Assembly (NCBI GenBank): GCA_951406725.2
Contig: OX597818.1
Span: 46,996,001 to 47,060,000, forward strand
Length of the DNA: 64,000 nt
Source of the DNA: Octopus vulgaris
Taxonomy: Eukaryota
Direction of reading: 5' to 3'
Positions within the stretch are counted from its first letter, which is position 1. Each line of letters opens with the position of its first letter. Both the position numbers and the translations under genes were made by a program. Positions 22,136-32,301 of the stretch are shown here, piece after piece. The notes below the pieces were generated by a model, which made no database searches, was not told the origin of the DNA, and worked only from the letters and a program-made list of their open reading frames with translations.

Positions 22136-23011
22136 CTGGAAAAGAAAAGAAAAAAAAAGACATTGAAGAATTCCATGATCAGGCTGAAAACACAGGTAAT
22201 AACACTGGATCAATAATTCACCTTTTAACTTGAGAGTACTCTCTGGCACACCACCAGCACTTCTCTTGCTGACTGGGGTAACCATGCGCTGAATCCCCCA
22301 CATGGGGATGCAATGGCAGCTTCGATATTGGTTTGAGTTATTCCAATATTACCTTTCCAATGTTTGTGAAGATACTAACACAAAATGACTATTTTGCTCC
22401 AGTTGACCACGATGTTTGTCCATGCTTGCATGAAGAACATTCTAATATTCTAACGTGATCAATGAGATTGGAAGGGCATCAAACTATAAAAACCATGCCA
22501 AAGCAGATGGTGGAGCTTGGCACACGATCAGTCCTCTGGCATACCAGTGCCTGTTGAACCAACCAACATGATAGCATGGAAGAGGGACGTTAAGTGATGG
22601 TGTGTGCAGCACTATGTACGTCTGGAAATCACATTGTAAATGAATGAATCATGCAGTGTCATTCGTTTGTAATCTTCATGAAAACATGTCCAGCTGTAGA
22701 AGAATATTGCCTTGCTTAGGTCAGTTAGCAAATTTGTACAAGCATGGAAGAGTGGATGTGAAAACCGAAGTTTCATTGAGACAGACATGTGGCCAAACAG
22801 CAGCCTCCAACATGAAGGTGCCAGTTACAACAATAGTTTGAATTATTGATTCAAATACTACTGTTATGATGTGAATGTTGAGGACCATTACAAGAATGCC
22901 AATTGTAATCTGTCATGTAAAACTTGTTTTATGGAACTAATCTGAAGCCCTGAATATAGTGTGTATTTCAGTTATAAGTGTACTGATGAACAGATGAAAA
23001 CATTACGGTTA

Positions 23012-23140
23012 TGATGTTGTGAACATTGAGGACCGTTACAAGATTAATGACTGACCTTGTAGCCGAAGACAGAACACATTTGATGTAGCCCAGGATGTAA
23101 TGATAAACATTCTAGTAATGCCATCACATGGAACTGGACA
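23012..23140 (-). ncRNA. Intronic box H/ACA snoRNA, type A
   Basis: Hairpin GTCCAG/CTGGGC with GTGATGGCATT/AATGTTTATCAT upper stem; H box ACATCA (23086-23081); second hairpin TGTG/CACA with TACAAGGT/ATCTTGTA; ACA box 3 nt from the end; 129 nt; sense to RPL27A. Confidence 0.8.
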
Positions 23141-23271
23141 AAGAATATGAATAATACTGAGAACCTTCAATTATCAACTACCTGACATCATGGAGATACA
23201 ATACCTGATGCTAAACGATGATGATGATGATGTTACACCAGTGTGAATGGTTTATTAAAAAATAGCTATTA

Positions 23272-23402
23272 TGATGTTGTGAACTTTGAGGACCGTCACA
23301 AGATTAATGACTGACCTTGCAACCGAAGACAGAACACATTTGATGTAGTCCAAGTAGTTATGATAAACAATACTTAATAATGTCATCACATGGAAATGGA
23401 CA
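23272..23402 (-). ncRNA. Intronic box H/ACA snoRNA, type B
   Basis: Same architecture; pairing-preserving changes in the stem (GTTGCAAGGT/ATCTTGTGAC); H box ACATCA at 23346-23341; 131 nt. Confidence 0.75.
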
Positions 23403-23780
23403 GAAACAAAACAATATCCTACAACAGGATTCAACAAATTATTTTACACATTTATCACCAAATAATAAGCATTCTAATATTTAATGTCATAGTATGGATC
23501 TGGACACAAACATGGACAACACTCTCTACGAAATCTCAATCACCACCAAGCTAATGATACACGTCTGTTCTGAGTGAAGAAAACCAATGCAAAATAGCTT
23601 CAGGAACTTAATTTACACACCAAAGAAGATTACAAATCGTGAGAACACTGACCTATTAAAAACCACCTAATTTCTCAACATCATATTCACTCTGGAATTA
23701 ATTATGCAACATTCACCATGTATACAAAGAAACAAATTTCCTTCGAACATGCGTGTATACCAGGTGTGGTAACAAGTTAG

Positions 23781-24040
23781 GGTACTACTTGCGATCAGTG
23801 GTCCCAGTGCATGCACACACACAAGCTAGTCCTAAGTCGACTTTTTAACCCTAACTCTAACCTTAGTTTGTTTATAAAGTTTAAAAATTATTTACTTTGT
23901 TCGAAAAATATTATTTAATTTTCTTTGACATGTATTCAGCCCTGAAATACTAAACATACGCACAAGTAGCTGTAGGATCAACCACTTACGACTAGCTATG
24001 GCGGATGCGCACACCGGGACCAGTGTTCGCTAGTAGTAAC
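23781..24040. mobile_element. GGTAC-terminated MITE with 9-bp TSD (Merlin/MULE-like), inserted in a SINE
   Basis: TIR GGTACTAC..CAGTGGTCCC; flanks acaagttag / ccaagttag. Confidence 0.75.
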
Positions 24041-24864
24041 CCAAGTTAGCTTCCCAATGACAGTCCAATCTGTCCCACTGTATGGCACTTGGTGAAAGTA
24101 TCTTCCACTCAGCCCTCGAGACAACCAGTCTTGTCAGTGGAATTGGCAGATGGAAACTGAATGAAGCCTGTCCTTTTGTCCACCACGACTACTTGAAAAC
24201 CAATGCTGGTGTATCTAAGTGCCAGTAAATTAGCAGTCCAGCAAAAGGAACTAATAGAATAATATCAGACTTCCATGCTGGCATGGATGATTTAACCAAG
24301 AAATGTCAAACGCAACTGAACTTTCTTGCCATTTCAAAGAGGGAACTGGAAAAACATATGACCATATCAACATTGCATACATTTAAATGGATGCAAAAAT
24401 CATTGCCTAATGTACATAACTATTTCACTCAAACATCATCATTTTACCAGCTACCATGAGATGCACAACTTATACAAGATTTTTCAGATACTGACCCAGT
24501 GCAATCTACCTGATGACTGAAAACAGATCATTTATTTCCCACTGCAATATTTTAGATGATAACGCTCCAATTTGTATGATAGTCATCATATAGGCAGAAA
24601 CAAAACAGTAGCCAAGGAGAGGATCAAACACAATTTGACATGTTTATCAATATTTAATGCCACAAACATAATATTCTCCAGTCCGTTATCAACAACCTAA
24701 CAAGGAACTATTGTGATTGAAAACCATTGCAAAATAGTTACAGGAATTGACTTTTCATACCAAAAAGCATTAGAAGTTGTGAGAACAATTTCTTTTGCTA
24801 TAACAATTTAGAGCACAGCAGGCAGTTTCATGTACTGGTTTGAATTAATTCAATATTATAGTTT

Positions 24865-24991
24865 TAGTGTTTGTGGTCAAGATCATCAAGACGACGAATC
24901 TTGCGGGACAGCGATTGACCACACTTGATGTTGTCCACATGATTAATGATGAACATTCTAACATTTTAATGCCATCACAGGTAATTGGACA
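24865..24991 (-). ncRNA. Intronic box H/ACA snoRNA, divergent type D
   Basis: TGTCCA/TGGACA hairpin 1, H box ACATCA (24931-24926), 9-bp TGTGGTCAA/TTGACCACA hairpin 2, ACA-CTA end; different pocket sequences. Confidence 0.72.
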
Positions 24992-29568: not shown

Positions 29569-29697
29569 TGATGTTGTGGACATTGAGGACTGTTACAAGA
29601 TTAACGACTGACCTTGCAGCTGAAGACAGAACACATTTGATGTAGTCCAGGTTGTAATGATAAACACTCTAGTAATGCCATCATATGGAACTGGACA
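29569..29697 (-). ncRNA. Intronic box H/ACA snoRNA, type C
   Basis: Perfect GTCCAG/CTGGAC lower stem, ACATCA H box, ACA-TCA end. Confidence 0.75.
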
Positions 29698-30426
29698 AAA
29701 AATATGAACAATACTTCCGAATCTGCGAAGAAAAATCAGCATTTCAAAATCTTAATTCTTCCCACCTACCAAGTTTTCACTTTTTTAAAAAGAAATCCTG
29801 GGACTAATGCAGTTTCGCACCTATCTTTGAAAAATGCATTTATTTGAAAAGTTTTTTTTCCAGATTCCTACGTTTTAGACGTCAGAGATTACGAATATGC
29901 AAAAAAAAAAAAAAACCCTACCACCACTCCCATTTAAAATTTTGAACTTTTTCGAAATTTTTTTGCCTATGGTTTAGATGACAGATTCTAGATGTGCAAG
30001 AAACCACGTTTTGAAACTTTTAAAATCAATAAGTATATAGAAAGGTGTATAAAGAGATAGATATGTCTTCCTGTGGCTAAAAACAACAGTAACACCGTCT
30101 TGTATAGGACCACCACATTTTAGTTGACTATGGAACAAGGAGGGGTAGATAGAGAAATAAATGAATAAAAATGTTCAAAATATAAAATAGAGCAAGGGGT
30201 GAAATTTGAGCCCCTTATAAAATTTTACAACATTATTAAATGTTTGTTTCTCATAAAATGGCTCACATGGGGATGTGGTATATACTTAATTTACCTATTT
30301 ATGAATTTGTGCTATTTTACCCAACGAAAAATAAAGACGTAGTCTAATGTCTTGAATTTAGTTGAAACACAATTTGTGTATTTCAGTTCGATGTACGCTA
30401 ATGAACAGGTCAAAACATTACAGTTA

Positions 30427-30555
30427 TGATGTTGTGGACATTGAGGACTGTTACAAGATTTACGACTGACCTTGCAGCTGAAGACAGAACACATTTGATG
30501 TAGTCCAGGTTGTAATGATAAACACTCTAGTAATGCCATCATATGGAACTGGACA
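30427..30555 (-). ncRNA. Intronic box H/ACA snoRNA, type C
   Basis: Tandem-unit copy, boxes intact. Confidence 0.75.
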
Positions 30556-31304
30556 AAAAATATGAACAATACTTCCGAATCTGCGAAGAAAAATCAGCAT
30601 TTCAAAATCTTAATTCTTCCCACCTACCAAGTTTTCACTTTTTTAAAAAGAAATCCTGGGACTAATGCAGTTTCGCACCTATCTTTGAAAAATGCATTTA
30701 TTCGAAAAGTTTTTTTTTCCAGATTCCTACGTTTTAGACGTCAGAGATTACGAATATGCAAAAAAAAAAAAAAAAAAAACCTACCACCACTCCCATTTAA
30801 AATTTTGAACTTTTTCGAAATTTTTTTGCCTATGGTTTAGATGACAGATTCTAGATGTGCAGGAAACCACGTTTTGAAACTTTTAAGTTCAATAAGTATA
30901 TAGAAAGGCGTATAAAGAGATAGATATGTCTTCCTGTGGCTAAAAACAACAGTAACACCGTCTTGTATAGGACCACCACATTTTAGTTGACTATGGAACA
31001 AGGAGGGGTAGATAGAGAAATAAATGAATGAAAATGTTCAAAATTTAAAATAGGGGAAGGGGTGAAATTTGAGCCCCTTATTAAATTTTACAACATTATT
31101 AAATATGTTTGTTTCTCATAAAATGGCTCACATGGGGATGTGGTATATACTTAATTTACATATTTATGAATATTTAAGTAAATTTGTGCCATTTTACCCA
31201 ACGAAAAATAAAAGACGTAGTCTAATGTCTTGAATTTAGTTGAAACACAATTTGTGTATTTCAGTTCGATGTACGCTAATGAACAGGTCAAAACATTACT
31301 GTTA

Positions 31305-31431
31305 TGATGTTGTGGACATTGAGGACTGTTACAAGATTAACGACTGACCTTGCAGCTGAAGACAGAACACATTTGATGTAGTCCAGGTTGTAATGATAAA
31401 CACTAGTAATGCCATCATATGGAACTGGACA
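31305..31431 (-). ncRNA. Intronic box H/ACA snoRNA, type C (2-nt deletion at the hairpin-1 apex)
   Basis: Tandem-unit copy, boxes intact. Confidence 0.72.
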
Positions 31432-32172
31432 AAAAATATGAACAATACTTCCAAATCTGCGAAGAAAAATCAGCATTTCAAAATTTTAATTCTTCCCACC
31501 TTCCAAGTTTTCACTTTTTTTAAAAGAAATCCTGGGACTAATGCAGTTTCGCACCTATCTTTGAAAAATGCATTTATTCGAAAAGTTTTTTTTTTTCCAG
31601 ATTCCTACGTTTTAGACGTCAGAGATTACGATTATGCAAAAAAAAAAAAAAAAAAAAACCCAACCACCACACCCATTTAAAATTTTGAACTTTTTCGAAA
31701 TTTTTTTGCCTATGGTTTAGATGACAGATTCTAGATGTGCAAGAAACCACGTTTTGAAACTTTTAAAATCAATTAAGTATATAGAAAGGTGTATAAAGAG
31801 ATAGATATGTCTTCCTGTGGCTAAAAACAACAGTAACACCGTCTTGTATAGGACCACCACATTTTAGTTGACTATGGAACAAGGAGGGGTAGATAGAGAA
31901 ATAAATGAATGAAAATGTTCAAAATTTAAAATAGGGGAAGGGGTGAAATTTGAGCCCCTTATTAAATTTTACAACATTATTAAATATGTTTGTTTCTCAT
32001 AAAATGGCTCACATGGGGATGTGGTATATACTTAATTTACCTATTTATGAATTTGTGCTATTTTACCCAACGAAAAATAAAGACGTAGTCTAATGTCTTG
32101 AATTTAGTTGAAATACAATTTGTGTATTTCAGTTCGATGTACGCTAATGAACAGGTCAAAACATTACTGTTA

Positions 32173-32301
32173 TGATGTTGTGGACATTGAGGACTGTTAC
32201 AAGATTAACGATTGACCTTGCAGCTGAAGACAGAACACATTTGATGTAGTCCAGGTTGTAATGATAAACACTGTAGTAATGCCATCATATGGAACTGGAC
32301 A
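32173..32301 (-). ncRNA. Intronic box H/ACA snoRNA, type C
   Basis: Copy closest to the intron 5' end, boxes intact. Confidence 0.75.

Follow-up and report, generated by a model that had tools for sequence, protein, structure and literature searches.

The stretch of DNA analysed here (hereafter the window) comprises 64,000 nucleotides of the Octopus vulgaris genome (assembly GCA_951406725.2, contig OX597818.1, positions 46,996,001 to 47,060,000 of the forward strand, numbered from 1 in what follows) and carries on its minus strand the gene of the ribosomal protein uL15, RPL27A, whose third intron contains an array of related elements that, as read from sequence, very probably belong to the box H/ACA class of small nucleolar RNAs (snoRNAs). 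Five exons joined at GT/AG junctions encode an open reading frame (ORF) of 149 amino acids (Table 1). Identification of the gene came from a search of the PDB, where exon 4 matched 62 distinct uL15/RPL27A sequences; the best match, chain a of entry 9EHO (E 2.7e-37), differs at 2 of 59 residues and belongs to an octopus ribosome structure, as described in passages of PMC13321053. A Pfam search with exon 4 alone returned no domain. A protein search of the genome found the RPL27A exon and one other match, a processed pseudogene (L026:1340-1620, contig C2) that is 3′-truncated, carries stops and has exons 1-4 fused, leaving one intact gene found. RNA contigs from X1 and X9, which also show the spliced joint between exons 4 and 5 (the contigs from X16 and X18 are without it), run on at their loose ends from 22135 into the terminal 30 bases of exon 3. 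As these contigs join exon 4 to the end of exon 3, the main mRNA loses the 11.3 kb between them as a single intron, and exon 3 is spliced directly to exon 4 across all the copies. The limits given for intron 3 in the initial annotation of the window, 22136-33442, agree with the exon model and with its GT/AG ends.

Nine close full copies of the element, 127-131 nt long and 85-100% alike, were found concordantly by nhmmer, BLAST and a covariance model. They fall into subtypes A (four copies), B (two) and C (three), with 98-100% identity within subtypes and 85-93% between them. A tenth full copy, D, shows 66-70% identity to the close copies and has changed guide arms, and the ten full copies counted in the initial annotation are reached only if this diverged paralogue is included. 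The truncated and decayed copies announced there were found as well (29321-29420 truncated; 22867-22973 decayed, E 0.016), and the claim that all copies are host-sense held for every nhmmer and covariance-model match, intact or decayed. A fragment at 25329-25378 is related to the possible relic at 24460-24600 (76% over 50 nt), and the spacers between copies measure 119-1716 nt.

Table 1. Features of the RPL27A/uL15 locus, with positions in the window
Feature	Position	Strand	Basis or remark
RPL27A/uL15 exons	36040-36042, 33977-34040, 33443-33518, 21958-22135, 20810-20938	minus	GT/AG junctions
RPL27A exon 3	33443-33518	minus	exon model
RPL27A exon 4	21958-22135	minus	exon model and PDB match
Intron 3 of RPL27A/uL15, host of the cluster, 11,307 bp	22136-33442	minus	GT..AG ends
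Tandem repeat, about 3.3 units of 858-878 bp	29418-32315		units 96-97% alike, one A copy per unit
Subtype A copy, 129 nt, first in transcription order	32173-32301	minus	nhmmer; covariance model, 155.6 bits
Subtype A copy, 127 nt	31305-31431	minus	nhmmer, covariance model
Subtype A copy, 129 nt	30427-30555	minus	nhmmer, covariance model
Subtype A copy, 129 nt	29569-29697	minus	nhmmer, covariance model
5′-truncated C-like copy	29321-29420	minus	keeps H box, hairpin 2 and ACA; broken off at the tandem repeat's boundary
Subtype B copy, 131 nt, H box ACATAA	28396-28526	minus	covariance model, anatomy scan
Subtype C copy, 129 nt	28142-28270	minus	covariance model
Subtype C copy, 129 nt, apparent recombinant	26297-26425	minus	5′ flank C-like, 3′ flank as in the truncated copy
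Diverged intact paralogue D, 127 nt, single copy	24865-24991	minus	both hairpins, ACATCA and ACA kept
Subtype B copy, 131 nt	23272-23402	minus	covariance model, anatomy scan
Subtype C copy, 129 nt, last intact, 876 nt above the 3′ splice site	23012-23140	minus	covariance model
Decayed copy	22867-22973	minus	covariance model 20.7 bits, E 0.016; other search E 0.011
Probable decayed D-like copy	22358-22474	minus	11.2 bits, E 1.4, not significant alone; by-eye resemblance
Possible decayed copy	24460-24600	minus	by eye only; missed by the covariance model
SNORA14-like single H/ACA RNA (candidate), RPL27A intron 4, outside the array	21792-21917	minus	Rfam SNORA14, 21.3 bits

The anatomy first proposed for these elements, hairpin-H box-hairpin-ACA, was recovered in all full copies: a lower stem, an internal loop and an upper stem are followed by the H box, a second hairpin and ACA with three further bases. 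The H box reads ACATCA or ACATAA and lies between the two hairpins in all ten full copies; ACA follows hairpin 2 in each of the 11 full or truncated ones, and conservation ends 3-4 nt later, at the predicted 3′ end. The lower stem of hairpin 2 counts 4 bp in subtypes A to C and, in A, differs from the minimum-energy fold. The z-scores of folding are modest, lying between -0.6 and -2.3 for the host strand and between +0.7 and -1.0 for the opposite one; D, with intact boxes, has the best-folding second hairpin of all copies (z -2.26). Pairing is kept in 96.4% of cells, with 8 one-sided changes. Between subtypes the element is 85-93% alike, whereas most pairs of 100-nt flanks are 45-69% alike; that conservation stops at the predicted RNA ends speaks for the H/ACA reading. 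The flanks had been described as different, which stands between subtypes and fails within recent duplications, where they are 90-100% alike. In those duplications, variable sites number 4 of 387 in elements versus 36 of 1098 in flanks (Fisher p=0.017 pooled), a slower change of the element that is compatible with selection or gene conversion. Compared over 20700-28100 of the intron region with 4 of 23 runs, organisms B, C and D show only a few differences per kb from the window, a number that leaves phylogenetic covariation out of reach.

A DNA search of the whole genome (2.8 Gb) gave 12 matches, 10 inside intron 3 and two fragments on contigs C27 and C3; these counts are lower bounds, distant family members being possible elsewhere. 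A search with D, subject to the same limit, returned no second copy of it. The covariance model, run on 7 loci, recovered just the two known fragments. Since only these two lie outside intron 3, the element is not a transposon, and the transposon-like dispersal that the initial annotation had named as a ground for refutation was not seen. The C27 fragment (L011:1501-1601) covers element bases 1-100, starts near the predicted 5′ end and mixes bases of B and C; it has no intron flank and sits among pieces of short interspersed elements (SINEs) with a duplicated 20-base SINE stretch. Perhaps this is a chimera copied from RNA, in which case it would be a hint of the RNA's existence. A 22-base pattern sought in metagenomes gave one match, inside a bacterial ORF, and was judged a chance hit.

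The element has multiplied within one intron through repeated local duplication together with unequal crossing-over, copies being born, diverging and decaying along the way. This expansion, already suspected in the initial annotation, is documented by the tandem units of 858-878 bp, which differ by 14-19 substitutions and 5-7 gap events, and by a 640-bp block in which a B+C pair was duplicated (28142-28526 block versus 23009-23649, 96% alike). The flanks of the second B+C block are present in contigs of X9, X16 and X18, and this duplication is therefore real and shared. The copy at 26297-26425 appears, from its mixed flanks, to derive from crossing-over inside the element. The same annotation went too far in ascribing the 11-kb length of the intron to inflation by the cluster: of the 11307 bp of intron 3, the elements account for 1420 and sequence duplicated locally for about 3458 (about 31%), so that the cluster enlarged the intron but explains less than most of its length. 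Several stretches of the intron region behave as dispersed repeats, with DNA contig depth raised by orders of magnitude in several bins.

Candidate targets were sought by a relaxed pocket scan, in which a few spare bases were allowed in the pockets, against RNAs of the same genome, namely 18S (2643 nt), 5.8S and 28S ribosomal RNA (rRNA) and U1, U4, U5 and U6. Hairpin 2 of B, C and the truncated copy, with arms TGTCTTCG / CCTC, pairs by 4+8 bases around 18S U1553, at the canonical distance of 14 nt from ACA. The sequence GGAGG-Psi-UCGAAGA is the context of human pseudouridine (Psi) 1045 (Taoka 2018 supplement, PMC6182160), a site that is 92% modified, and hairpin 2 is the likely guide of pseudouridine at U1553, the predicted equivalent of this site. 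Its arms are intact in all 10 close copies, the truncated one included, with one pair lost in A. Hairpin 1 of C (TTCCAT / TTACAT) forms 5 of 6 plus 6 pairs around 18S U1364, likewise 14 nt from the H box; this position is the equivalent of human Psi863 (the motifs of Psi863, 866 and 681 are given in the supplement of PMC11541003). The runner-up, which is the best site for subtype A, is 18S U882, the equivalent of human Psi681. That hairpin 1 would guide U1364, with U882 as the alternative, is an evenly balanced prediction. The fit varies with subtype, C matching both sites, A showing both weakened, B having lost the 3′ arm of hairpin 1 and D having lost both; for D no convincing target was found. 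For 4 of the 8 hairpins, the top match in 18S is the equivalent of a human Psi site. Such a coincidence arose in 12-17% of trials with shuffled pockets, and for the four hairpins matching such sites, 6-19 of 300 shuffled trials reached a human-Psi equivalent and equalled or exceeded the observed score. That the top matches fall on known human Psi sites gives the predicted targets added weight.

Among the sites that were discarded, a presumed equivalent of human Psi572 was rejected, the Psi572 motif being CTTTA, in a stretch changed in octopus 18S. U1836 was dropped as a target, and so was U1795 (human Um1288, 4+6 pairs), which nevertheless keeps the second rank for hairpin 2 and the first for A. 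Octopus 18S itself (L013, contig C20) is 2643 nt long and very GC-rich, and by the by-eye map several positions modified in humans, among them the equivalents of human Am1031, Psi801 and Psi822, are no longer U or A. Copies of rDNA are spread over at least four contigs, and one of the copies measures 2565 nt.

Taken as a whole, we consider it reasonably probable that the copies are co-transcribed with RPL27A, form ribonucleoproteins (RNPs), are cut apart and trimmed, and guide pseudouridylation of 18S rRNA. In such a scheme the copies would be transcribed as part of the RPL27A pre-mRNA and dyskerin, NHP2 and NOP10 would load on the nascent intron; H/ACA RNP assembly is described in parts of PMC10557570 as independent of splicing. 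Cuts within the 119-1716-nt spacers would then free the copies, as must happen for the intronic H/ACA clusters of Drosophila, and trimming would bring them to 127-131 nt. Spacer cutting is proposed here because trimming by exonucleases only would end in either a long RNA with snoRNA ends or a single RNA for each lariat. For the release of several copies from this one intron, taken separately, we lean only slightly in favour.

A number of results weigh against this reading. Rfam returned no H/ACA family over the array at the gathering score, with 17 kb searched at E values of 10 or less, or with a 431-base input. A generic scan for H/ACA anatomy, covering both strands of all four introns, counts in favour in that its hits were confined to the two B copies, the intron 4 RNA and one plus-strand match, and against in that the A, C and D copies were missed by this strict scan. 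The covariance model suggested earlier as a check was built from the copies and recovers the array, with covariation not above that of shuffles: none of 28 pairs shows a two-sided change, the copies being too alike for power, and of the claim that differences between subtypes mostly keep the stems, the kept pairing stood and two-sided change was not seen. Separate Fisher tests of the recent duplications gave p values of 0.16 and 0.17, neither significant. As for the targets, 29-96 of 100 shuffled target sets score equally well, so complementarity alone proves nothing. For hairpin 2, 28S U1957 at 17-nt spacing ties in score with 18S U1553, and the top 18S matches of A hairpin 2, B hairpin 1 and both D hairpins lie off the equivalents of human Psi sites. 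A stricter first pocket scan had missed the present targets and returned other, weaker ones. The shuffled-pocket test was devised after the results of the relaxed scan, on 18S alone and with a lower arm threshold, and it relies on a by-eye map that assigns 32 of the 497 U of octopus 18S to human Psi sites.

According to a first alternative, which we regard as unlikely, only one or two copies serve as guides, the others having arisen as neutral side-products of duplication in a repeat-rich genome; exonucleases alone would yield at most one mature RNA per lariat, from whichever copy assembles an RNP. One-per-intron release is indeed given as the rule in most animals in the parts of PMC11028025 consulted, and the four A copies ride in 870-bp units 96-97% alike with both predicted duplexes weakened, while B has lost a hairpin-1 arm and truncated and decayed copies are present. 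Neutral duplicates would nevertheless not be expected to change more slowly than their flanks even in recent duplications (the pooled p of 0.017), to hold boxes and hairpin-2 arms intact in all 10 close copies, or, as D does, to retain both hairpins and the boxes at about 30% divergence. Because each of the four subtypes has diagnostic bases, a single small-RNA library would suffice for a direct test of the release route.

Two further explanations are each very improbable. The outermost RNPs might protect a snoRNA-ended long RNA of up to 9.3 kb (32301 to 23012), similar to SLERT, together with nested forms; intron 3 is spliced whole, and passages of PMC11028025 and PMC10557570 state that a vertebrate intron with two snoRNAs gives rise to such an RNA. 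Against it, the predicted pockets are kept and aimed at known Psi sites, the inner spacers are duplicated or repeat-filled and unconserved, and Drosophila expresses snoRNAs from clustered loci (part of PMC13228274). The copies might otherwise be H/ACA-fold RNAs with another target, either scaRNAs, the small RNAs specific to Cajal bodies, acting on spliceosomal RNAs or orphans. The CAB box has the consensus ugAG, and the loop of hairpin 1 ends in CUAG, UUAG or UAAG, loosely CAB-box-like (NNAG); the rRNA pairing scores alone are not significant and D is without a good target, both of which would fit. Yet the best pairing to the octopus U1, U4, U5 and U6 scores 5.5-8.0, below the 9-11.5 reached on 18S (U2 and the minor snRNAs lay outside this comparison), and the host encodes a ribosomal protein and harbours a second guide for rRNA.

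Splice signals within the copies raise another alternative, an array of poison cassette exons of 76-78 nt with an early stop that would autoregulate RPL27A. The A and C copies have a pyrimidine tract and AG at base 7, with AAG|GTCAGT in hairpin 2, and both signals occur in 6 of 11 copies, where inclusion would lead to a stop in the fourth codon. This explanation is scarcely probable: AG is lacking in B, D and the truncated copy and the donor in one A copy, conservation extends 44 nt past the donor to ACA+3 and tracks hairpin pairing, and the joints seen at exon 4 are all canonical, in contigs that drop rare forms. An unbroken X1 contig (22106-23878) shows no cassette-exon branch, which was not counted, as contigs drop rare forms. 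The intron is rich in dispersed repeats and the 870-bp tandem block is known from the assembly alone, but the chance that the array is a small transposon, a satellite or an assembly artefact resembling snoRNAs is practically negligible, given 10 of 12 genome matches in intron 3 and all host-sense (lower bounds), tandem units that each differ by 14-19 substitutions, and contigs from X9, X16 and X18 that carry the flanks of the second B+C block.

The arrangement itself is known from Drosophila, as the initial annotation had pointed out. H/ACA loci of this insect are generally clustered, according to parts of PMC3089462, and among the rows listed from the supplement of PMC11028025, intronic clusters of Arpc2 comprise 10 Psi18S-525 (a-j) and 7 Psi18S-640 (a-g) genes, with others in dom, RpS5a, RpL17 and RpL22; the same paper, in part, describes animals as having mostly one snoRNA per intron. 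As in octopus, many near-identical H/ACA genes share a host intron in these clusters, ribosomal protein hosts included, on the same scale. The octopus array differs in phylum, in having no Rfam match to the fly families, in its predicted sites, in its long spacers (119-1716 nt) and in a growth partly by segmental duplication of 640-870 bp. The SLERT sno-lncRNA (snoRNA-ended long non-coding RNA) likewise comes from more than one snoRNA in a single intron, although in SLERT two snoRNAs bound one long RNA, whereas in octopus an array of ten is known from DNA.

Human SNORA24 (ACA24) guides 18S Psi863, as stated in a portion of PMC6776443, and agrees in this with the octopus prediction. It has also been proposed as the guide for Psi1045 through its H-box hairpin (PMC6182160), whereas the octopus prediction uses the ACA hairpin, and unlike the octopus element it guides Psi609 too. 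Membership in the SNORA24 family was rejected, with no Rfam match and the predicted sites alone in common, and the octopus element would be at most a functional analogue. Vertebrate RPL27A, the same host gene, harbours SNORA3/ACA3 and SNORA45 (PMC13736004 and PMC1636440), and chicken ACA3 lies in RPL27A introns 2 and 3 (PMC2653536, in part). These occur one per intron and have 28S targets, where the octopus element cannot pair. At octopus 28S U3512 and U3551, the 3′ arm makes 0-2 contiguous pairs in all 8 hairpins; this and the lack of an Rfam match led us to reject a SNORA3/ACA3 identity, and with it the link drawn in the initial annotation. These two positions are assigned as the SNORA3-type sites from the human numbering combined with the chicken spacing (39 nt apart).

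The guide sequence is unlisted in Rfam and the cephalopod case is apparently undescribed. The literature covered, with subscription papers and bioRxiv supplements outside it, contained no description of the octopus cluster or of cephalopod intronic snoRNA clusters; a giant squid paper offers Rfam counts only, the portions of PMC1821038 and PMC9997552 consulted hold nothing decisive on the novelty of the cluster, and the terms 'snoRNA' and 'pseudourid' are absent from the text of the octopus ribosome paper (PMC13321053). For a lineage in which ribosome research is active, this would add an H/ACA guide absent from Rfam with two testable 18S sites, and multi-snoRNA introns would be extended from insects to a mollusc. 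Such an intron implies a route of release beyond vertebrate-type trimming, and the array documents in compact form how snoRNAs are born, recombine and decay. A broader proposal, quite improbable at present, is that octopus independently evolved a Drosophila-like route uncoupled from splicing that cuts several H/ACA RNAs from one intron (RPL27A, RPLP0), freeing a guide family to expand and to divide its tasks. If so, A, B, C and D would re-tune their pockets against a strongly remodelled GC-rich 18S of 2.64 kb, with D aiming at a new site, and copy number would set the level of small-subunit pseudouridine, which bears on decoding accuracy in humans. In the same proposal, a 9.3-kb RNA with snoRNA ends might in addition be bounded by the outer copies.

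Other small RNA genes were found in the same genome. The SNORA14-like RNA in intron 4 lies below the Rfam cut-off of 36 (E 0.067), keeps both guide arms and forms 6+6 Watson-Crick pairs around octopus 18S U1474, the equivalent of human Psi966. It follows that RPL27A is a snoRNA host gene and that octopus H/ACA RNAs are almost invisible to Rfam. Contig C3 carries three U17/SNORA73 genes in a gene (L034:4293-6271) that, from its N-terminus, we presume to be RPLP0-like, two of them between exons 1 and 2 (intron 1) and the third in intron 2; a processed RPLP0-like pseudogene joins exons 1 and 2 directly, less four bases. Multi-snoRNA introns were therefore present at both host loci examined (RPL27A and RPLP0-like). 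The U1, U5, U4 and U6 genes occur in tandem clusters (contigs C18, C25, C4 and C1), from which small RNA genes seem to amplify locally in the octopus genome in general; the processed RPLP0-like pseudogene on C1 (L037) has an inverted 5′ part.

Within the host protein, uL15 reads GGLLHHR in exon 3, with Leu at the position of human His39, likewise in the 9EHO octopus chain; human His39 is presumably the site hydroxylated by RIOX2/MINA53. Exon 4 is likewise strongly diverged in its C-terminal half. Positions 32578-32986 hold a 410-bp element with inverted ends that resembles a miniature inverted-repeat transposable element, with related pieces in each 870-bp tandem unit and at 34713-34747, and related palindromic repeat elements occur at 33572-33768, 34371-34575 and 23955-24046 (introns 1, 2 and 3). 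Farther along the window, 57800-59720 is a long simple-repeat tract with strong GC skew.

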